A stretch of 64,000 nucleotides of DNA, taken from Pirellulales bacterium (lineage in GTDB: Bacteria > Planctomycetota > Planctomycetia > Pirellulales > JALHPA01). The position numbers were made by a program, and so were the translations under genes. Below, one piece after another: positions 15,969 to 33,085 of the stretch. The notes beneath the pieces were generated by a model that did not search any database, was not told the DNA's origin, and saw nothing but the letters and a program-made list of their open reading frames with translations. Numbering within the stretch: the stretch's first letter is position 1; each line of letters opens with the position of its first letter. The DNA is taken from NCBI GenBank assembly GCA_049840575.1, contig JASGKV010000024.1, positions 136,874 to 200,873 of the forward strand. The letters are read 5' to 3'.

Positions 15969-17492
<1,524 letters not shown>

Positions 17493-21943: not shown

Positions 21944-21981
21944 GCCCCCTGGATCGCACTTGCGATCCAGGGGGCGTTTTT
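21944..21981. terminator. Rho-independent terminator between convergent dehydrogenase-domain gene and dnaA
   Basis: gccccctggatcgca-ct-tgcgatccagggggc followed by T5. Confidence 0.55.
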
Positions 21982-22088
21982 GTGCGTTGAATAAAATCGA
22001 CTCGTTTACCGAAGTGAACCTGTGTACTAGCGTCCGCCGCTCTCTAAGTAACCTTCCTGACTCCCGATTCCCAGCCCCTGTCTCCTTA

Positions 22089-23603
22089 TTATCCAATCGC
22101 ACGCAACCGTTCTTCCACTCGCCGGATCGCTTCTTCCACCGGCCAGGTTTTGCCGCCGAAGGCGACTTTGCTTTGCTCGTTGACCCAGCTCACGACCTTC
22201 TTCTGGGCCGAGATCACCGTGCTGTGGCTGCGGCGGCCGAAGTAGCCGCCGATCTCGGACAACGCGGCGCGAGTGTATTTGCGGGCCATCCACATGGCCA
22301 GCATGCGGGTCGTGTTGACCGATTTGGCGCGGCGTTCGGTCTGCAGCGATTCGGCCGGCAGGCCCAAGGCGTCGCAGACCGCTTTCTCGATGTCCGGCAG
22401 CTTCCAGCCCTGGCCGCGGCGATGCAGCAAGTCGGCCAGCGCGTCTTCGACTTCGGCTTGATTCAACGCATGTCCCAACAACCGGCGGGTCGAGCGCCAG
22501 ACGTTGGATCGCGCCGCCCAACTCGCGGGCGTGTTCGTTCAAATGCGTGGCCAACAATTCGACGATTTCGTCGCCCAGGTCCAGATTCTTGGCTTCCGCC
22601 AATTGGCGGATGATGCCGACGCGGACCGGGTGGTCGGGCGTATCGAGTCGCGCCGACATGCCGCCGCTGAGGCGCAGTCCCTAAGTGCTGGCCAAGCTCG
22701 TGCAACTCATGCGGCGGACGATCCGAAGAGAGCACGACCTGTTTGTGATCGCGCAGCAACGTATCGAGCGTATGCACGAATTCCGTCAGCGTCGCCCGCT
22801 TGCCGGCCAAAAATTGCACGTCGTCGACCACTAAGAAATCGACCGAGCGATACTTCCGCCGGAACATCGGCAAACCGCGACCGTGCAACGCTTCCAAAAA
22901 CTGGCTGGTGAACTGTTCGGCCGTGAGAAACAGGCAATTCCGTGACGGATGCCGTGTGCGGTTGGCGTGGATCAGGCCTTCCAGCAAGTGCGTTTTGCCG
23001 GTGCCGGTGCCGCCGTGAATCAGCAACGGGTTGGGCTCGCCCGGGTGGTCGACCACTTGCATGACCGAAGCATGGGCCAAGCGATTGCAGTACCCGGTCA
23101 CGAACGAATCGAGCCGCGGCCCAACGCCGTGCACGTGGTTGCAGCCCCAGTGGTTCGGTCGACACCGGTTTTCCCGACGCTGCGTTCGGTAGCGAGAGGA
23201 TACGGATTTCATCGCTCTGCTTGGCGACCTTGCCCGAGTCTTGCGGCAGGCGCGCATCGGTACGGTCGATCGTCAGCGCGGCGGACTGCGCGGTTGCGGA
23301 GGTTTGCGGAGTTGCCGACGACGGCGCAGCGGCTTGCGCTTCCAGGGCGGCGACCAATTCGGCGTTGATCGCGAACTCCAACGGCACGGCGCGGCCCAGC
23401 ACGATGGCGGCGACTTCTTCCAAGTCTTTGCGGAAGTTGTTGCGCAGCCAGTCTTGATAGAACCGCCCCGCCGTCTCGACCAGCAAGCCGGTCGGGCGTA
23501 ACGTCAAACGCGTCTGTCCCCCGAACCACATTTCATAGCGTTCCCGTCCTACACGTTCGGCGAGGTTTGCCAACAACGCCGAAACGATTTCCATATCGTC
23601 CAT
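22089..23603 (-). CDS. dnaA: chromosomal replication initiator protein DnaA; 2-3 apparent frameshifts
   Basis: N-terminal domain (ORF 22707..23726: MDDMEIVSALLANLAERVGRERYEMWF...). AAA+ domain (ORF 22463..23257: NPLLIHGGTGTGKTHLLEGL..., FLVVDDVQFLAGKRATLTEFVHTLDTL, Walker A/B, sensor). C-terminal DNA-binding domain IV (ORF 22089..22481: ...ALSEIGGYFGRRSHSTVISAQKKV...). ATG 23603. Confidence 0.8.
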
Positions 23604-23971
23604 GGTCACTTCCTGCTTCGATGAGACGCGCGCGCAATACCCGATCGGCCACCCGTTTGGCGGGCGGTGATCAAGCGATGTACGAATCCGTCGCCGCCAG
23701 AAAAGCGGACAACGCAAGGGGCGCAAGATGCGTGGGAAAACGCTCGTTGCGAGATGCGATGTGTGTCACCCGACGACGCGATTGTAACCACGCTAGCAGC
23801 ATCGTCAAAGCACCAATTGCCGACGTCCCGAAGCGATCGAAACGAGTTCTTTCTTATCGGTCCGAATTGCCCGAGGAATGATGCGAATCCCACCTCGACC
23901 GGAGCGATGAATTTTTTCGCCGGCGGTTTTCGCGGCGTGGAAAAGGTGTTTGGATTCGGTCAGGATCGCGT

Positions 23972-24991
23972 TCAGACGCTGCGCGGTACGATGCGTATCT
24001 CCTTTAATTGCATTGAGTTAATGCGCTTCGCGAAATCCGGCGTTGGCCGGCTTCGTTTCTTCAGTCGTTTCGATGTTAGAATCAAGCCCGGCTCAGATCC
24101 TCGTCGCCAATGGCTTGGCCCAGGCGGTTTTTCGCACCATTCCAGCAGCCCGAAACGCTCGTAAATGCGACGTGCCGGCAGGTTGCGGACGTCGACCGCC
24201 AGGATCAGTTTATCGGCCCCCAGCAGGCGGCTTTGGTCGAGGCTCCAGGCCAGCAACTCGTCGCCGAATCCGTGCCCGCGACGGTTCGGGACGACTCCCC
24301 AATAAATCAGTTCCGTGAAGGCTGATTCGCTCTGCGAAGCAGTCGCCGGCGGTCGATGCTCGGCCAGCAGGACGCAGCCTACCGGCACATCCCCCTCCCA
24401 GGCCAGCCACCAGTGCCGCTCGGCCGCGTCGCCGACCGCCCGATAGCCGTCGAGCAGGTCTTCGATCGACCGGCGACCTTCCATCTCCGGAAAATCCCGG
24501 CTGCCGAGATAGGTCACCGCGACCGTCCGGCTTAACTCCTCGGGAGAGGATTCGGCGACTGGCCGAAACGCCAACCGCGTCGCAGGCGTCGCGGCCGGAA
24601 AGCGCCGTGCTAGACAGACTTGATACGATAAATCGCCTAACCGCTCGAATCCGAGTTCGGCGAGTCGCTGCGCGATCGGCGGTGTTTCCTCGGCGACCAA
24701 CGTCTGCAGCCACGACACGCCGCGGCGTCGGGCATAACTTTCGGCAGCTCGCCAAAGTTGGTTCGCGATCCGGTCGGATTCGTCGCCGACGTCGGGCATC
24801 ACGCGCGGGGCTTCGACGCTGGCCGTCCAACCGGCTTGCAGCTCGACGGCGATTACGCCCAGCAACGCGCCGTTCCGCGTCGCGGCCACGACGTCGATAC
24901 CTTCGGGGTATTCGCAGTTCAACAGCCGCGCGGCCGTCTGCCGATCTTCGGCCTGCAGTAGATCGAGTTCGAGCTCCTGCGAACCGGTCAT
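23972..24991 (-). CDS. GNAT-family N-acetyltransferase (tandem acetyltransferase domains)
   Basis: ORF 23972..25102. ...WWLAWEGDVPVGCVLLAEH..., ...GVVPNRRGHGFGDELLAWSLDQSRLLGADKLILAVDVRNLPARRIYERFGLLEW (acetyl-CoA binding R-x-x-G-x-G/A). Start is ATG 24991 or upstream 25102. Confidence 0.55.
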   Translation of the reverse strand: MTGSQELELDLLQAEDRQTAARLLNCEYPEGIDVVAATRNGALLGVIAVELQAGWTASVEAPRVMPDVGDESDRIANQLWRAAESYARRRGVSWLQTLVAEETPPIAQRLAELGFERLGDLSYQVCLARRFPAATPATRLAFRPVAESSPEELSRTVAVTYLGSRDFPEMEGRRSIEDLLDGYRAVGDAAERHWWLAWEGDVPVGCVLLAEHRPPATASQSESAFTELIYWGVVPNRRGHGFGDELLAWSLDQSRLLGADKLILAVDVRNLPARRIYERFGLLEWCEKPPGPSHWRRGSEPGLILTSKRLKKRSRPTPDFAKRINSMQLKEIRIVPRSV

Positions 24992-25134
24992 TCTTTCCAA
25001 ACGCGCGATGGGGAAGCGGAAACCCCTATCGTGGCCGGTTTCGCCGAATTCCTCAATGCGAATCCGGCTGTGAGCTTCGTAATCAGGCGGGCACAGCCGC
25101 ATCTGCTTATCGGCGATTCATCTCCAACTCCACT

Positions 25135-26036
25135 TCATAACGCAAATGCGGCGCTCGAGCGGACCATCTGCGCGGTGCGGATCGTCAGCAGATTCGGTTT
25201 GCTGCCGCGATGGCCTTCATAAAAGTGAACGCCCGGCTCGGTCGAGTTCTTCGGCGCGAACCCATAGCGTTGCACCAAATACATGACCAGCCGTTGCGGA
25301 TTGCCGACCGTGCCCGAGAACGTGATTCGCGAACAGCGGTGCGATTTATCGAAGTAGAACGTCAACGCGCCGGCCGGATCGATTTCGTTCGAGCCGGTCA
25401 CGAACGGCACGCGATAACCGCGGAGATCGCCCTCGACCAGTCCCGTGTTGACGCGCGGCCAGCGATACAGGACGTATTGCTGAGTCATGTCCAAATTCAG
25501 TCCTTCTTCCAACGTCGCGATCGCCAGCTCTTGCGATTTCGGCCCCGGCACCGGATCGTTCGGCCCAAATCCGGCCGGCACGCCGCCCTCGCCGGCTTTG
25601 TTCGACGATCCGACGTTCACCATTTTGCCGTTCGTGCCGGTGGGCGATTCGCTTTTCGTTGCGCCGCGCTCCATGGTGCGGCGTCGCGACCGGTCGCTTT
25701 TTGCGCTTGGTCGTAACCGTCGATGGCGCGTTGCGCGGCTTGTTCGACGCGGTCTTGCGCGCGTTCGATCTCGCCGGCCGCCCGTTCAGCGGAATCGCTG
25801 ACCGTGCGGAACACGCTCGATTTCGTCGGCGCGTCGCGCCATGACGTATCGTTGACCAACGTGTTGGTCTTTTCCCACGAGCGTTGTAACTCGATCCCTT
25901 CGGCCGAATTCACGCGTGGCGAACTCGACGCGGGAACTTGGACCCAATCCAGGATCTGTCGCCACTCGCTGGCGGCGTACGGAACGCCGAGCGCCGAGGC
26001 CAACAACCCGACGAACATCACGTGATGCTTCAACAT
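25135..26036 (-). CDS. hypothetical secreted protein; 1 apparent frameshift (~25650)
   Basis: ATG 26036: MLKHHVMFVGLLASALGVPYAASEW signal. ORFs 25617..26102 and 25135..25674 join. Confidence 0.4.
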
Positions 26037-26456
26037 GGACGGAACTCGCCGCGGGACGACCGTCGAAGCGGCCGCCATGCCGTTCGCGATCTCCTCGTTC
26101 ACCGGGCCCGCAGAATCCGTCCGTCGCGGGAGAGAGCGTGAGGGCTCGTCGGTTTTCTTCGACCGACGTTACGCTGCGGCTTGAACGACGCGATCCGACG
26201 TGCCGGCATCGCTACCATCGTTAGAGTCGCGGTGTGATCCGTTCCAATTATGCTCCTTTCTCGGTTTTGCAGCCGTATCTCCGAGCGCGGATTCTCGCGA
26301 GCGAAACATGGGATTGTGATGCAGACAAACGCGGTTGCCGGCACGAAAACTCTACCGCGACTTTCACGCGATCACCGATCGGATTGCTCTCGTGCTCACC
26401 TCCGATTGCTCGTATCCTTCGCGCGGATTTCGGTCAACTCTCTAAAGGAACACGAC

Positions 26457-26951
26457 ATGACATGGGCAACTTTGCGAATCCTCGCGTTGGCGGTCGTCTG
26501 TTTTGGCGCGGGCTACGTCGTTCCGAAGTTCGAGCACGCTCGGATCGAACCCCACGAACCAACGGCGACCAAGATTGAAAGCGTCATTCGTACTTACGCG
26601 CTTTCAAACGCGGCTGTGACCGAGGCGACGATCGAGTTAACCAAAACGCTGGGCGACGTAGCGTGTAACTTCGAGGTCGATACGGAAAACAACTCTTTCG
26701 CCGCGTACGCCCTGCCGGAAGTCCACGAACGGATTCAGTCGCTGATCGCGAAGCTCGATGCGCGGCCGGCGATGGTGAAAATCAATTGCGAACTGTCGCG
26801 CACGGACTCCGAAGGCAAACGGACCGTCATCTCGCGTCCGCAAGTGATGACCATCGATGCCATGGAAGCGATGATCTCCGTGGGACAAGCCGACGGCGAA
26901 ACATTCGAAGTGAAGTTGCTCCCAAATATCGTTTCCTACGACGCGCCGTAG
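26457..26951 (+). CDS. hypothetical small membrane/secreted protein
   Basis: ATG 26457 with AAAGGA 7-12 nt upstream. MTWATLRILALAVVCFGAGYVVP hydrophobic N-terminus. 164 aa. Confidence 0.45.
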   Translation: MTWATLRILALAVVCFGAGYVVPKFEHARIEPHEPTATKIESVIRTYALSNAAVTEATIELTKTLGDVACNFEVDTENNSFAAYALPEVHERIQSLIAKLDARPAMVKINCELSRTDSEGKRTVISRPQVMTIDAMEAMISVGQADGETFEVKLLPNIVSYDAP

Positions 26952-27021
26952 AACGCTTTACACAAGCCGACCCCGGTCGGCTACCCGTCGGATTTCGATC
27001 GAACGTCGAACATTCGGCGCA

Positions 27022-27716
27022 TCAACGCCGCGCGGCCGCCGATATTTCGTCGATCAACTTCCGCGGCGCCCCGATGTCGACGACACGGACCTCGCCTAAG
27101 TACTTCGTCGACGCTGGGTTCTCGAAGCCCCGTTTTTCGGCCACGAACGTGCATGTCCGCGTCGCTCTCACGGTGTGCGCGGCCGGGACGCCCGTGTCGC
27201 AATCCAGTCCGCTCGGCAGGTCGACGGCCAGTACCGGTCGGCCTGCCCCGTTGATCGCGGCGATCGCCTGAGCGTACGGCGCCGGGGTTCGCCCACGGCG
27301 CCGGTCCCCAGCAACGCGTCGACGACCCAACTCACGCCGGCGAGTTTCGCCGCGACCCGCGGCAGCCAACTCGGGCGGTCCGCGCGATCCGCGCAGATCG
27401 TGATCGGCAAACCGGCCGCCGACGCGATGCGATAATTCGTCGCCGCATCGCCGGTCAACGCATCGGCTTCGCAAAACAGCAGGATTTCGACCGCGATTCC
27501 GCGCAGTTCCAAATGTCGCGCGATCACGAACCCATCGCCGCCGTTGTTTCCTTTGCCGCAGCAGATCACGACCGGCCCCGCGCCGCAATCCTCAGACAGG
27601 ATCTCGGCGACGCCGCGGCCGGCGTTTTCCATCAACACGATGCCGGGCACGCCGAACTCCTCGATCGCCCGGCGATCGACGTCGCGCACCTCGGCTCGGG
27701 TCAACGTGGTTTTCAT
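27022..27716 (-). CDS. nnrE: NAD(P)H-hydrate epimerase (YjeF N-terminal domain); 1 apparent frameshift
   Basis: ...LMENAGRGVAEIL...VVICCGKGNNGGDGFVIARHLELRGIAVEILLF...TGDAATNYRI... then in a second frame ...AVDLPSGLDCDTGVPAAHTVRATRTCTFVAEKRGFENPASTKYLGEVRVVDIGAPRKL. Confidence 0.65.
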
Positions 27717-27900
27717 CGTGATCGTGTTGGGCTTACGGGGCGGTGCATCAAAACGGATTCAACGCTTACCTGGATTCGCTTCTTGTCGCTGCGCAGACCC
27801 GGGATCAAGATCCCGGGCCACCCTGTTGTCTTTTTGTTCCTTTTGTTGTTCTTGTGGCCAATCCTTTTGTTTTTTTGAGCCTCTTTGAGGCCATCCGTAT

Positions 27901-28858
27901 TCACTCGGCTTTCGCGGCCGGCTCGGGTTTCTTGAAGTCCAAATCGTGCCGCCGTTTCGATTCGTCCCGTTTGAAGATCGGGCCGACTTCCACCACGCAG
28001 GCGTCGCCGTCGGTCTTCACCCACGCGCAGTCCGGCGCGGCGGGACCGGTCTTCGCCGGGTAGTACGCGTGCGCTTTCTTCAGCGGGATCGGCGCACCGT
28101 TGATCCGCGGCATGCCGAACGTCACGTGGATCGCCGGGATGTTCGAACGCGGAATCTTCGCCGTCGAATACACTTCGACGAACGCCGAATGCTTGTTCCA
28201 GTATTGGAACGTCTCGCCCTCGAAACGTAACGCGCCGACCTCGTGCGTCTTGCCATCGGGCAGTTTGATGCGGCAGTGAAACCACGTGTTCTTCTTGTCG
28301 CCGTCGGTTTCGGTTTCACCTTTGACGATCGTGTACGTGTAGGTCCCTTTGCCCCAGACGAACGGTCGACGGACGCTGGCGAACTCGCCTTCGTAGCCTG
28401 CGCTTTCGACCAAGCAATCGTCGCCGGCCGTTTTCACGTGATCGAGCCCGATGGGCGTTTTCTTGTCGTTGGACCAGCGCGAGAAAATGCCCCCCTTGCC
28501 GGAAAAGACGCGTTTGCGACTTTCCTTGTCGGCCCAACCGTTGATGTTGGTTTGGATGCCGCCGTAGAACTGTTGCTTGTTGATGTTGGCCACGCCGACC
28601 GGCGCAACGTACAAGTTGTAGGTCGACGGAATGTCGCGATCGATCGTGACGTCGACCTCGAGCGACGTGAAATCGTCGACCGGCTTTTCGAGATCCCACC
28701 AAATATTGGCCACATGCCAGGGCAACTTCGGCAGTTCGACGCCGGCCGCCTTGGCCATTTCGACGGGCGTCGGTTGCGCAAGGATCGGCGACCTCGTCGG
28801 CGAACGCGAACGAGCAGCAGATTCCCACGGCCACGATGATCCCGACACGCAACGACAT
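27901..28858 (-). CDS. hypothetical secreted protein; 1 apparent frameshift near the 5' end
   Basis: ATG 28858: MSLRVGIIVAVGICCSFAFADEVADP signal (ORF 28316..28897 frame), continuing in ORF 27901..28848 (ILAQPTPVEMAKAAGVELPKLPWHVANIWWDLEKP...). No confident family. Confidence 0.45.
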
Positions 28859-29205
28859 AACGACCTGACTAGAAAAAACGAGTTGATGTCTCATCACGCT
28901 CCCCGCGCGGTCGCGTGAACAAACGATGATCTGATGATAGCCCCGTCATAGCGTTGCGTGCTGGATCGTTTCCGCAACGCGGATGACGATTTGCGCATAA
29001 ACGCGTGAAACGTGATGACTATCGAAGCGTAAAGTGACTTGTTCTCGCTCGAATTTCGCCACAAATTCACGATCTACGGTCGGCATTCATCAGCTTCAAG
29101 ACACTTTACACGCGTTGACCTCGACGATTTTCTCTACACCGTATTTCTATCCGTGTTCATCCGTTCGATCCGTCGAATCCGTGATCCATTTCTCCAATCG
29201 GATTT

Positions 29206-30351
29206 CTATTTCAAACGCTGCGTGTGTTTTAGCAATTCCGCGTCGAGTTCCTTCGGATCGCCGAAGGCGTCGCGGAACTCCTTCATCCGTTCCTCCGGTT
29301 CGTCCCACACGAACGGCGGTTTGTCGGCCAGTTTTTGCATATAGCCGACGTATTCCTTCGGTTTCATCTTCAACAGGAAGTGGTTCAACGCCCACGCTTC
29401 GGCGTACGCGTCGAGCGATTGCTTGGGCTGTACAAAACGTTTGTTGTCGACGACCAGCGTCGACAGCGACTCGCCCGGCCGTTGCGGGACGTACTCGCGG
29501 AAACGGTCCAAGCGCGAGCCGTTCGTCGCGCCGATCGTCGCCCAGGCGCGTTGCGTGCTAAGGTCCGGCGTTTCGAAAAACACGGCCAACCCTTCGGCGA
29601 CCCACAACGGAATATCGGCGAAGCGGCGATGCAGACCGCGGTTGTACGCGATTTGGTGCGTCGCTTCGTGCACGATCGTGGCGACCATCTGCGACGCCTC
29701 GGGCTGCGACAACATCGCGTTGATCTGTTGCGCGTTGCCGCGCTGATCGCCCGGGCGACGCAGCGCTTGTTGACCGGTCAGGTCGTACAACGTGATCCGA
29801 TTGGTCTGCAAACTGTAGAACGCCACGACTTGCCGGGCGTCGCCTTGCAGTTCGTTTTTCGTAAACGTCGAGTAATTTTCCACGCCGTCGAAGACCAACA
29901 CCATCAGCGGAAATTCGGGCTCCTTCAATTTGAAACCGAGCTTGGTCCAATAGTTCGAAAAGCCGGCGTACAAACGCTCCAACAACCCGCCCACCCATTG
30001 GGCGTAGGCCTTGCTGGTGTTGTGGACGATCACGTAATGCACGGTCGCATGGACGGTGAACCCGGCCGGCAGTTCGGCCTGCAATTGCTTGGCCGCTTCG
30101 GCCGGCTTCAGCGGCGTAAACGGGCGAGCGTCGGTCGTGTGTTTGACCAATTCCTCGGGCTGGATCGTCCAAATCCGGCCGTCGACGCCTTCGAGCATCA
30201 ATCCGCCGTCGGCGGCTTTCACCAGCAGCCGCGCGTTCAACGTCCGCTTCTCGCCGCCGCGCTGGTACTCGACGACGTCGAGCGCACTCGCGCAACGGGC
30301 AAGCCCGGCGAGCAATAGCGTGACACAAAGACAACGGAGCACGAACGACAC
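29206..30351 (-). CDS. DUF1570-domain secreted protein (HExxH-containing)
   Basis: GTG ~30351 (VSFVLRCLCVTLLLAGLARCASA signal). ...MVATIVHEATHQIAYNRGLHRRFADIPLWVAEGLAVFFE..., the core pattern of DUF1570 (family call from memory). Confidence 0.55.
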   Translation of the reverse strand: MSFVLRCLCVTLLLAGLARCASALDVVEYQRGGEKRTLNARLLVKAADGGLMLEGVDGRIWTIQPEELVKHTTDARPFTPLKPAEAAKQLQAELPAGFTVHATVHYVIVHNTSKAYAQWVGGLLERLYAGFSNYWTKLGFKLKEPEFPLMVLVFDGVENYSTFTKNELQGDARQVVAFYSLQTNRITLYDLTGQQALRRPGDQRGNAQQINAMLSQPEASQMVATIVHEATHQIAYNRGLHRRFADIPLWVAEGLAVFFETPDLSTQRAWATIGATNGSRLDRFREYVPQRPGESLSTLVVDNKRFVQPKQSLDAYAEAWALNHFLLKMKPKEYVGYMQKLADKPPFVWDEPEERMKEFRDAFGDPKELDAELLKHTQRLK

Positions 30352-30536
30352 GGGGAAATCCTGGAAAACCGAATGGCGGCGACTGGTTTTATCGTAATCG
30401 GGACGGGGACGAGCGGAAAATACGGAATTCGAGTCAACGGGCGACCACAGGACGCGGTGACTCCGAATGATTCGCGTGTTTTTCCTTATTTCTCCGAGCC
30501 ACACGATCTTTCGCCAAACCACCCGGTCTCACCGAT

Positions 30537-30960
30537 TTCACTGTACGAGCGTTACGAGCGAAATGAGCGTAACGATCGACATGATTTTTTCACTTCGCGA
30601 AAGGCCCCTCTCGGGAGCGTCCCTACCTAACTTCACTGCACGAGCGTTACGAGCGTTACGATCACAAGCGACGCGAGTGTTTTTTTGATCCAGCCGCCGG
30701 CGTTCGTCTGCGGTTCGCCCACATCGCTAAAACGCCCCATTTTGAATTCGCGAGCGTTACGAGCGTTGCGCACGTTACGAGCGATCGGAAATTCGTTTTC
30801 ACGACGAAGCGACGCATGCACCTCGCGATGCGGGGCGATCGAACGGTCGCCGATCGTCCACCCCATTGCCGGATGTTCGGCGAGCCCGGCTCGACGCGGC
30901 TTACCTATCTTCACTTTGCGAGCGAAACGCGCAGTTGCGACCAAGTGTGTCGCGTGGTTT
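30537..30960 (+). repeat. cluster of four degenerate direct repeats containing a tandem 9-mer (ACGAGCGTT)2-4
   Basis: Units at 30537 (ttcactgtACGAGCGTTACGAGCGaaatgagcgtaacg...T6), 30632 (ttcactgcACGAGCGTTACGAGCGTTACGatc...T7), 30747 (ttcgcGAGCGTTACGAGCGTTgcgcACGTTACGAGCGat...T4) and 30910 (ttcactttgcgagcgaaacgcgc...T5). Units 2 and 4 are preceded by cctacctaac / cttacctatc. Lies in a ~940-bp stretch with no convincing ORF. Confidence 0.5.
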
Positions 30961-31300
30961 TTCCCAAAACGAGGGACGTCGGTCTCCTGGGTGACTGCGA
31001 TCGATCGTCCACTCTTAGAAACTCAGGGGACTAACGTCCCCCGCTCGGGAAGATTCGTGGAGAACGCTTCGCATTCCGACGAAAACCCCCGCGACGTTAT
31101 TATATACGCACGTACACTCGCGCGTCAAGGCTATTTCGCAAGAATTTTCTACTCAAAACGTCGTGTCTTGCGCGTCCCCCAGTCACGCCTTTTCCGTCGG
31201 CCAGGGCGTGGCAGCGCGGTGTTTCGTTAAAGCAACGGACGGTTCGGAGACTTCGGGGAGGAAGCGTCGGCCCTCCGGTTTCGCTCGGCGCGCCGGCCGA

Positions 31301-32701
31301 TTAATAGACGTCCAAGCCGCTCAGTTTTTCTTCCACCTGATCGGCTTGCCACGCCACCGCGCCGACGACTTGCGTCACGGCCAGCGGGTTGAGCATATCG
31401 GCCGGCAGGTTGGCTTGAATCACCAAGCTTTCGGACTCGCCCAGTTTGGCCACGGCGAACGCGCCGTAGACCATCTTGCCGTTGAAGCGGAGCAGCGTCA
31501 GCGCGTTCTTTTCGGTGACCGGCCCGCAGGTCGAGCGGAACGACACGATGGCGTGCCCTTCTTCGTCTTTGCGATCCAGCAACGCGGTGACCTGCTGTTT
31601 GCGGAGCGTGCCGATCGGCACGGTCATCACGATTTCGTCGCCGTGATTTTGCAACGCATAGCCGGCCGCTTCGGCCGCTTGCGTCACGATCTCGGCCGGG
31701 TTGCCGGTTTCGCGGGCCAGTTGCCCGAACTCGGGCCGCTCCCCCTTTTTTCCGGCCGCCGCCGCGCCGGGATACAGCGGAGGGAGTCCGCCGCTTTGCC
31801 CCGGCGATTGCGGAAACGCGGATGGTTGCGGCGTGGGCATCGGACTGCCCGAGAGCGGGCCGGTGTTGCCGCCGCCAGCCATCATGCCCGGAATGGCCAT
31901 CCCCATGCCGAAGCCGACGCCCATCCCCAGCGAGCCGGGAACTTGGCCGCTTTCGGACATCTTGCCCAGGCTCTTGGCCGTTTGATAACGCATGTACGAA
32001 TTCAAATCGCCGATCACGCCCATCGAACCGCGCGCATCGATCGCCTTTTGCACTTCGTCGGGCGGCGTGATGGCGTTGATGAAGAGATCGACCAGTTCCA
32101 AACCGTACTTGCCGAAGTCCTCGGCCACCTTGGCCCGCACGCCGGACGCGATCTCGTCGTAGCGCGACGGGAGATCGAGCAAGCTGGGGTTCATCGCGCC
32201 GAGCAAGTCGGTCAGCTTGCTGACGATCACGTCTTTTTGAAACGAGACGATCTCGTCGGTCGTGTACTTGCCCTGGCTGCCGACCAGCGTGTTGAGCAGC
32301 AGCGCGGCGTCGACGACGCGGAACGAATACTTGCCGAACGAGCGCAAACGCACCGCGCCGAAATCCTTATCGCGAAACGCGATCGGCTGACGCGTGCCCC
32401 ATTTCTGATCGATGAACGTCTGCTTGCCGATGAAGTAGACGCAGGCCTGAAACGGCGATTTTTCCCAAGGAATCGTCAGGATCCGCGTGAGAAACGGGAC
32501 GTTTTGCGTGGTTAACGTGTGGCGGCCCGGGCCGAAGCTATCCATCGCCCGGCCGTCGCGGAAGAAGATCGCTTCCTGCGCCGAGCCGACGATCAACTGC
32601 GCACCGTACTTGATGTCGGCCGTCCCGTCGGCCGGGATGCGCTGCACCAGCGATTGATTCGCTTCGTCGTGATATTGAATGACTTCGAGTCGAAGGCCCA
32701 T
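31301..32701 (-). CDS. SPFH (band-7/stomatin-prohibitin-flotillin-HflK/C) domain protein
   Basis: 466 aa with ATG 32701. N-terminal SPFH-like region (IVGSAQEAIFFRDGRAMDSFGPGRHTLTTQNVPFL...). Gly/Met/Pro-rich linker. C-terminal domain of the COG4260-type architecture. Confidence 0.7.
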   Translation of the reverse strand: MGLRLEVIQYHDEANQSLVQRIPADGTADIKYGAQLIVGSAQEAIFFRDGRAMDSFGPGRHTLTTQNVPFLTRILTIPWEKSPFQACVYFIGKQTFIDQKWGTRQPIAFRDKDFGAVRLRSFGKYSFRVVDAALLLNTLVGSQGKYTTDEIVSFQKDVIVSKLTDLLGAMNPSLLDLPSRYDEIASGVRAKVAEDFGKYGLELVDLFINAITPPDEVQKAIDARGSMGVIGDLNSYMRYQTAKSLGKMSESGQVPGSLGMGVGFGMGMAIPGMMAGGGNTGPLSGSPMPTPQPSAFPQSPGQSGGLPPLYPGAAAAGKKGERPEFGQLARETGNPAEIVTQAAEAAGYALQNHGDEIVMTVPIGTLRKQQVTALLDRKDEEGHAIVSFRSTCGPVTEKNALTLLRFNGKMVYGAFAVAKLGESESLVIQANLPADMLNPLAVTQVVGAVAWQADQVEEKLSGLDVY

Positions 32702-32757
32702 GGTCAGGTTTTCGGGTTCAGGGTTCAGGTTTCAGGGTTCGGGGTTCGGGGTTCGGG
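32702..32757 (-). repeat. eight tandem heptamers (coding-strand CCYGAAC-like) immediately 5' of the SPFH-gene ATG
   Basis: Plus strand 32702-32757: ggtcagg ttttcgg gttcagg gttcagg tttcagg gttcggg gttcggg gttcggg, then atg (reverse complement of the start codon). Confidence 0.7.
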
Positions 32758-32795
32758 ATGTGCTCGGCGGACCGGGGCATGAATACTCGATTCGG

Positions 32796-32867
32796 AACAG
32801 AAGGAAACGAAGAAATCGAAGATCGAGTCCGAGGAAAAACTCTTCGCTTCCTTCGTTTCCTTCTGTT
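32796..32867. repeat. 17-bp perfect inverted repeat (hairpin-capable) in the SPFH-gene upstream region; third copy at 32958-32976
   Basis: aacagaaggaaacgaag (32796-32812) pairs with cttcgtttccttctgtt (32851-32867), with a 38-nt loop. gaacagaaggaaacgaagg recurs at 32958-32976. A degenerate reverse-complement copy cttccttcgttatcttccgtt lies at ~33048. Confidence 0.6.
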
Positions 32868-33085
32868 TAAGTTTTTGCAATGAGTCTTCGCCGATGAGGG
32901 CGAAAAGACTTCGACGATCCGTTGATTGAGGTTGGCCGACTTGAGCGAAGGGAATGTGAACAGAAGGAAACGAAGGTAAGGAAGAACTGCGATTCCGTCG
33001 TCACGCTTCTCAGTGACCTTCGCGATCTCCTGTTCATTCGCATCTTCCGAGCTTCCTTCGTTATCTTCCGTTCAAGTTTCTCGAT

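Follow-up and report, generated by a model that had tools for sequence, protein, structure and literature searches.

Four diverged copies of a 62-base repeat in the non-coding gap upstream of a DUF1570 gene of an uncultured Pirellulales bacterium

Between two minus-strand genes, one encoding a DUF1570 protein and the other an SPFH (Band_7_1) protein, the genome of an uncultured Pirellulales bacterium carries a gap of about 950 bases (30352-31300 of the 64-kb stretch of DNA analysed here, hereafter the window) that holds four diverged copies, all in the same orientation, of one repeat of about 62 bases (units U1 to U4), together with one or two fragments of it. This raises the question as to what such units are: sites on the DNA, genes for small RNAs or peptides, insertions of a mobile repeat, or the remains of a local duplication. 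We consider it probable that they form a local, lineage-specific, non-coding repeat module acting, if at all, at the level of the DNA; as for its function, the reading that we tentatively place first, with less than even confidence, is that of a locally amplified module providing reiterated binding sites for a protein.

Anatomy and conservation of the repeat unit

The original prediction for this DNA described four degenerate direct repeats built around a tandem 9-mer, and these repeats are real and stand out from chance. The pattern ACGAGCGTTACGAGCG, allowing up to two mismatches, occurs four times in the 64 kb, always in the gap, while shuffled sequences give 0.14 occurrences and none of 100 shuffles reaches four. 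The window contains eight exact copies of the 9-mer ACGAGCGTT where 1.4 are expected, and four of these lie in the gap; TACCTANCTTCACT is found twice against 0.13 expected. Tandem Repeats Finder detects three 9-bp arrays (30545-30575, 30640-30661 and 30751-30783), and a repeat finder aligns four 31-nt copies that begin at the starts of U1 to U4 (Table 1), with unit copies 62-81% identical to the reference copy. In each of the six pairwise comparisons of units, the alignment scores better than all 300 shuffles, and an nhmmer profile built from the four units recovers them with expectation values (E) of 1e-17 to 1e-19, the next plus-strand match in the window having an E of 0.5.

In terms of organization, each unit starts with a head, TACCTA-N-CTTCACT-NN (a variant of it in U3), which is followed by up to four abutting 9-mers of the ACGAGCGTT type and then by a short tail and a run of four to seven T. 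The homologous sequence extends over about 62-66 bp and not over the 100-160 bp first proposed; the starts of successive units are 95, 110 and 168 bp apart, and what these distances add to the unit is mostly non-homologous spacer. The T-run, previously placed some 35-45 nt beyond the 9-mers, starts instead 48, 48, 53 and 48 nt past the head in U1, U2, U3 and U4, respectively. Two to four 9-mers do abut in each of the four units, as had been claimed, an arrangement of reiterated abutting repeats such as is looked for in operators and iterons; exact copies, however, number only one, two, one and none in U1 to U4, and the others carry one or two mismatches. The irregular spacing, the 62-81% identity of the copies to the reference and the internal tandem 9-mers dismiss an array of clustered regularly interspaced short palindromic repeats (CRISPR), in agreement with the first description of the locus. 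A hidden array with a period of about 53 bp was likewise considered and rejected, the head-only fragment that follows U1 being the sole significant extra piece. Frameshifts in the dnaA, DUF6690 and YjeF_N genes 3-8 kb away call for some caution here, as the lengths of the T-runs and small insertions or deletions in the repeats are possibly inexact.

Table 1. Repeat units, fragments and neighbouring features, in window coordinates
Feature	Position	Strand	Description
U1	30529..30590	+	Head TCACCGATTTCACTGT; 9-mers ACGAGCGTT ACGAGCGAA ATGAGCGTA ACGATCGAC; T6 at 30585-30590; profile E 4e-19
U2	30624..30686	+	Head TACCTAACTTCACTGC; two exact ACGAGCGTT and decayed copies; T7 at 30680-30686; profile E 6e-19
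U3	30734..30799	+	Variant head CCCCATTTTGAATTC; 9-mers GCGAGCGTT ACGAGCGTT GCGCACGTT ACGAGCGAT; T4 at 30796-30799; profile E 2e-17
U4 (most diverged)	30902..30962	+	TACCTATCTTCACTTT; GCGAGCGAA ACGCGCAGT; local hairpin TGCGAC..GTCGCG; T5 at 30958-30962; profile E 2e-18
Head-only fragment	30588..30599	+	TTCACTTCGCGA; directly after the T-run of U1; equalled by 0/300 shuffles against U4 and 2/300 against U3
Possible tail-only remnant (low confidence)	30463..30483	+	CCGAATGATTCGCGTGTTTTT; like the tails of U2 and U4 (67-76% identity); 17/23 identical to the U4 tail
Sigma-70-like promoter, strong	31099..31128	-	TTGACG-18-TATAAT; 11/12 positions match; points through the repeats towards DUF1570
Strongly folding stretch, about 125 nt	30963..31092	-	Just downstream of the promoter; -59.8 kcal/mol, z -3.0; 1/200 shuffles fold as well
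DUF1570 gene	29206-30351	-	GTG start at 30351; Pfam PF07607, E 3.7e-40; flanks the gap downstream on the minus strand
SPFH/Band_7_1 gene	31301-32701	-	Flanks the gap upstream on the minus strand
16S rRNA gene, complete	15977-17491	-	Rfam RF00177, 1482 bits

Conservation is unevenly distributed along the unit. Mean pairwise identity, computed on U1, U2 and U4 only, aligned without gaps and with a random expectation of 0.256, is 0.67 in the head, 0.72 in the first two 9-mers and 0.58 in the tail plus T-run; it is 0.26 in the third and fourth 9-mers, that is, in the 18 nt between the conserved blocks, and 0.23-0.26 in the flanks. The first conserved part is a 34-bp block made of the head and the first two 9-mers (CTTCACTGCACGAGCGTTACGAGCG, or CTTCACT-NN-RCGAGCG-WW-ACG-M-GCG); the second is the T-tract, found at a fixed distance of 48 nt from the head in three of the four units. 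Each 9-mer is a partial dyad of the form ACG-AG-CGT. The spacers are mostly unalignable with one another, and faint similarity is seen only between spacers S1 and S4 (3 of 300 shuffles) and between S3 and S4 (5 of 300). Two conserved blocks at a fixed spacing, beside spacers at random level, argue against the passive decay of a simple block duplication and, judging from the alignment, would favour either constraint or the copying of discrete modules.

The same evidence has to be weighed for a functionless relic, in which a 9-bp microsatellite would have seeded a small amplification, tandem or segmental, in an intergenic slot tolerant of junk; the product would now be decaying and would owe its better-kept parts to slippage or gene conversion among the copies, not to selection. 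We see this as a possible explanation, if a less than likely one. The degeneracy of the copies speaks for it, as do the truncated head abutting U1, as if left over from a once-contiguous array, the faint similarity of some spacers, and the fact that no promoter, terminator or structural signal was found in the units. Neutral decay, however, should hit cores and spacers alike, which fits poorly with a head, a first pair of 9-mers and a T-tract at 0.58-0.72 identity next to a middle part and most spacers at random level, and with the unit length of 48 nt that three copies out of four have kept.

Distribution of the unit and contents of the slot in relatives

The unit profile finds no further copy in the rest of the window (63 kb) and no match in five related loci (L033-L037) chosen through their DUF1570 orthologues. 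An exact-pattern scan of viral contigs gave no match, and blastn found nothing in plasmids and phages; two degenerate-pattern scans of metagenome contigs of the Joint Genome Institute (JGI) gave no match and then five single chance matches in coding DNA. An exact 20-mer scan of species-representative genome contigs gave 32 matches, single or in tandem, from unrelated taxa, none of them at a repeat-like locus; as it returned no self match, the source genome is absent from that collection. A literature search for planctomycete intergenic repeats or small RNAs yielded nothing specific. The original prediction held that repeats occurring nowhere else, with no transcript ends at their T-runs, would probably be a relic of local duplication: no copy was indeed found elsewhere in the searched data, but a neutral block duplication accounts poorly for unalignable spacers beside conserved cores.

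These searches also bear on the idea of a small dispersed, non-autonomous element, resembling a miniature inverted-repeat transposable element (MITE), a repetitive extragenic palindromic (REP) sequence or a Staphylococcus STAR element, that would have been inserted several times in one permissive gap. Such insertions would account for similar cores set among unrelated spacers; the motif TTTCAC stands on both sides of U1 (30536-30541 and 30588-30593), and the corresponding slot of L033 holds other hairpin repeats. The idea is nevertheless quite improbable in view of the searches, in which no copy turned up in the other 63 kb, the five related loci, the metagenome and viral contigs, the plasmids or the phages, and in which the matches in species-representative genomes were scattered and unrelated. 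Moreover, the repeat search detected no terminal inverted repeats, the units have no shared palindrome or consensus hairpin, all copies point the same way, and the flanking-repeat pattern is clean in one unit only. REP sequences, with the bacterial interspersed mosaic elements (BIMEs), and STAR elements do share with the units a short conserved core recurring at irregular intervals, among unrelated spacers, in intergenic DNA. These families are dispersed over the genome and the REPs are palindromic, whereas the units described here lie within one 450-bp stretch among the DNA searched and lack any shared palindrome.

Some of the 20-mer matches are plain minisatellites of the same 9-mer, intergenic and regular, and owe their retrieval to a search pattern that selects for copies in tandem. 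In a Caldilineaceae genome (L030, 1682-2265), a near-identical 9-mer forms part of an array with a 20-bp period and 29.5 copies; in Chondromyces apiculatus (L009, 6925-7020), it forms an array with an 18-bp period. Both share the ACGAGCGTT-type unit, and L030 also contains CGAGTGTTTT, the variant with which U2 ends; by comparison with the units, however, they are contiguous, regular arrays from unrelated phyla, devoid of the head, the spacers and any higher-order module. The growth, in unrelated genomes, of tandem arrays of almost the same 9-, 18- or 20-mer is a point in favour of the functionless relic. In two planctomycete genomes (L028, 3990-4040, and L014, 6800-6845), the tandem 9-mer is located at an apparent protein start resembling a signal peptide (MNARRKLVTLVTLVAMLLLL; MTLATLVTLAASFSLALP), and in L014 a far longer open reading frame (ORF) also spans the site. 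As the tandem 9-mer occurs there in apparent coding DNA, the motif is not intrinsically non-coding.

The slot between DUF1570 and its upstream neighbour is itself variable. The DUF1570 protein is 100% identical to protein P0001, encoded on a 345-kb contig of a metagenome-assembled Pirellulales bacterium at NCBI; its next relatives are only 63-65% identical, so that the lineage has been sampled once. Upstream of DUF1570, L033 and L034 both have SPFH and a permease-like gene of about 550 residues, to which L033 adds a pair encoding a 72-residue protein and a PIN protein (VapBC). L035 has a permease-like gene of about 540 residues, with protein kinases upstream in place of SPFH, and L036 a gene for a major facilitator superfamily (MFS) transporter. 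In L037, SPFH is followed by 421 bp of unrelated, AT-rich spacer with short CTCCGTG repeats of its own, and in L033 the spacer between SPFH and the permease gene contains GGGGAGGG/CCCTCCCC hairpins. Since the contents of the slot differ and the profile has no match in the relatives, the slot is variable and the array specific to this lineage. Repeats that are missing from relatives whose DUF1570 is 63-65% identical, and that are replaced there by a permease gene, VapBC, REP-like hairpins or AT-rich DNA, would also be expected of a relic; if the units are one, the locus mainly illustrates the fast turnover of a slot that can hold a permease gene, a toxin-antitoxin pair, hairpin repeats or an array.

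The surroundings are arranged differently as well. Relative to DUF1570, the block made of dnaA, a GNAT acetyltransferase gene, DUF6690 and YjeF_N (22000-28900) has the opposite orientation to that seen in L033 and L034, and an extra gene of 315 codons (27901-28848) adjoins DUF1570. Compared with L033, dnaA is split in four frame segments (22092-23603), and DUF6690 (25138-26036) and YjeF_N (27043-27716) contain one frameshift each, while SPFH and DUF1570 are intact; these frameshifts are likely to be indel errors of the assembly and not the marks of real pseudogenes. With dnaA only 6.7 kb away, a replication origin (oriC) was considered for the gap and rejected: no DnaA box, allowing one mismatch, is present in the region and only three are present in the 64 kb. 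The cumulative GC skew of the window has no turning point, no parS site was found, and the related loci have no cluster of DnaA boxes beside dnaA either.

Tests for peptides and small RNAs

The gap is non-coding DNA, as the original prediction had it for this region between two minus-strand genes. Its GC content is flat at 0.56-0.60 over the three codon positions, in every frame and in every 150-nt sub-window, whereas the neighbouring genes show about 0.62/0.42/0.80 (0.40-0.49 at the second position, GC2, and 0.76-0.84 at the third, GC3); none of its short ORFs matched a Pfam or NCBIfam family. The remnant of a pseudogene was rejected, as tblastn with the slot proteins of the relatives (the permease and the 72-residue and PIN proteins of VapBC) and with the proteins next to them found nothing. 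So were duplicated gene 5' ends, the units having no significant similarity to the 5' ends of the DUF1570, SPFH and permease genes; one match in that comparison, reached by 7 of 3000 shuffles among 36 tests, was judged to be chance.

A special case of coding would be that of tandem mini-genes on the minus strand, similar to type I toxin-antitoxin systems, in which the 9-mers encode hydrophobic (V-T-L)n peptides that end at a conserved TGA in CAGTGAAG while the plus-strand unit serves as the antisense RNA. The minus-strand frames do read EKIMSIVTLISLVTLVQ and WIKKTLASLVIVTLVTLVQ, each before a stop, and MRRFVVKTNFRSLVTCATLVTLANSK at the beginning of a third; in the same orientation, mini-ORF peptides such as MSIVTLISLVTLVQ and one ending in KKTLASLVIVTLVTLVQ run up to a stop. 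The head supplies stop codons in two frames, and the same DNA encodes the signal-peptide segments of the planctomycete genomes L028 and L014. A 9-bp repeat, on the other hand, keeps its frame automatically, and by its very construction leaves two minus-strand frames out of three open; the start codons are inconsistent, the peptides would count 14, 10 or 35, and 51 residues, and U4 has no hydrophobic ORF. With a GC3 flat at 0.60 against about 0.8 in real genes, no Pfam or NCBIfam match and no antisense RNA signal, mini-genes are very improbable.

The possibility that the units encode RNAs deserves more attention, as the original prediction listed a family of small terminator-bearing transcripts among its explanations. 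In its most specific form, each unit would give rise to a very short plus-strand RNA of about 40-47 nt, running from the first 9-mer, some 7 nt after a TAnCTT sequence of the TANNNT type in the head, to the T-run, with the 9-mers as a seed or protein-binding motif. A conserved 5' block, a T-run at a fixed distance and a variable middle is the pattern to be expected of a seed followed by a terminator. The TANNNT hexamer is suitably placed relative to the first 9-mer in U2 (TAACTT) and U4 (TATCTT), and a hairpin that ends close to the T-run is possible in U1, U3 and U4. Sibling small RNA genes that stand in tandem and exceed 65% identity, such as OmrA/B, PrrF1/2 and AbcR1/2, are moreover known (PMC4211561), and share with the units diverged tandem copies in one intergenic region, an identity of about 65-80%, a conserved 5' part and a terminal T-run. 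By comparison with these siblings, the units lack a convincing terminator hairpin, a common structure and a promoter that could be recognised, and the RNAs would be only about 45 nt long.

At the level of the RNA itself, the tests are negative. Single units fold no better than shuffled sequence on the plus strand (z -1.5 to +0.6); the consensus fold of the four units reaches only -1.36 (plus strand) and -0.17 kcal/mol (minus strand) and contains no compensatory pair; and the fold of the whole 626-nt repeat stretch is unremarkable (z -0.42 and -0.59 on the two strands). The best hairpins ending at the unit T-runs, at -11.6 to -15.3 kcal/mol, stand at the 16th-41st percentile of the 412 T-runs of the window, compared with -34 kcal/mol for a genuine terminator at 21944-21975, and terminator-like sites are not enriched in the region (one found, 1.5 expected). 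An Rfam covariance scan, suggested as a check when the repeats were first described, matched none of the units: at gathering scores it reports only the 16S rRNA gene in the whole window, and a permissive scan of 29.8-31.8 kb (E up to 10) gives four chance-level matches (E 0.4-8.5), far below gathering scores and none on a unit. No sigma-70-type promoter is present on the plus strand of the gap, although promoter rules are poorly known in planctomycetes, and U1 and U3 lack TANNNT at the suitable distance. A family of small terminator-bearing transcripts is weakened by these results, and we regard very short tandem RNAs as unlikely.

Reiterated binding sites in a putative leader

The only strong promoter-like site in the gap is the one on the minus strand (Table 1), and a similar site, TTGACG-16-TACAAT, lies in the upstream region of dnaA. 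The folded stretch that follows the promoter in the gap ends in a 78-nt hairpin and TTTT (30966-30963); it has neither an Rfam match nor a counterpart in the related loci and, on the strength of its predicted fold, is a candidate small RNA or leader. If transcription from the promoter reads through, the four units would sit in a DUF1570 leader of about 740 nt.

Binding sites for a protein are ranked first because the RNA readings failed their tests and because abutting, partially dyadic 9-mers resemble cooperative operator arrays; the reiterated binding-site array, which the original prediction had put forward among its options, would fit the two-block conservation at fixed spacing. The four units would then be copies of one module of about 62 bp, amplified in a fast-changing intergenic slot and acting on the DNA, if they act at all. 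The run of 9-mers could have been made by replication slippage and the module multiplied by duplication or unequal recombination, while the conserved block would have been kept as the docking site of a sequence-specific DNA-binding protein. The partial dyad of the 9-mers, together with their abutting copies, would permit cooperative side-by-side binding. With the sites in the stretch presumed to be transcribed from the promoter to the start of DUF1570, the bound protein could block or loop the leader and so tune the expression of DUF1570.

Several observations weigh against binding sites. No regulator gene was identified among the annotated neighbours of the array, and no other gene in the window is preceded by the motif. 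The repeats are missing from the nearest relatives, so that no conservation across species can be demonstrated. The distances of the sites, 140-560 bp downstream of the promoter and 190-560 bp ahead of the start codon, are odd for operators, and a period of 9 bp falls short of one helical turn. A protein binding the 9-mers only would leave the conserved head and the T-tract unaccounted for, and slippage or gene conversion could keep the 9-mers alike even if they were not under selection. The assembly frameshifts nearby have to be borne in mind as well, and the binding protein itself is a predicted one.

Arrays of abutting direct repeats are used as operators by known repressors: MetJ recognises 8-bp met boxes, two to five in tandem, and the omega repressor binds arrays of 7-bp heptads. 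The units share with them the two to four abutting short repeats, the partial dyad and a copy number that varies from site to site. In comparison, the units have a 9-bp period, and each adds a conserved head of 14 nt, with a T-tract following 48 nt further on; furthermore, the four sites are spread over 430 bp of the putative leader, do not overlap the promoter and have no ribbon-helix-helix or other regulator gene identified nearby. The two-block conservation at fixed spacing keeps alive a bolder reading, to which we grant only a small chance, that the units are working modules of a kind new to the Planctomycetes: either sites for a protein that polymerises on 9-bp repeats and gates the 740-nt DUF1570 leader, or tandem RNAs of about 45 nt made up of little else than a repeated 9-nt motif.

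To our knowledge, promoters, operators and small RNAs are almost uncharted in Pirellulales. Should the 34-bp block turn out to bind a protein or to be an RNA module, it would offer a first handle on gene regulation in this order, and would also bear on the widespread and uncharacterised DUF1570 family; the finding rests on one singly sampled genome, with no comparative support.

Repeats of other kinds border the SPFH gene at its far end. A heptamer array, (GGGTTCA) x 5.9, occupies 32704-32754 and stops 2 nt short of the start codon of SPFH, on its upstream side; on the strand of the gene it reads CCGAACC/CTGAACC, and L033, L034 and L037 are without it. Beyond it, the stretch 32755-33085 contains inverted blocks, some rich in purines and others in pyrimidines (gaacggaagataacgaaggaagc ... 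cttccttaccttcgtttccttctgttc, with another such pair); hairpin repeats similar in style and unrelated in sequence are found in L037 (5770-5910) and L033 (3290-3450).

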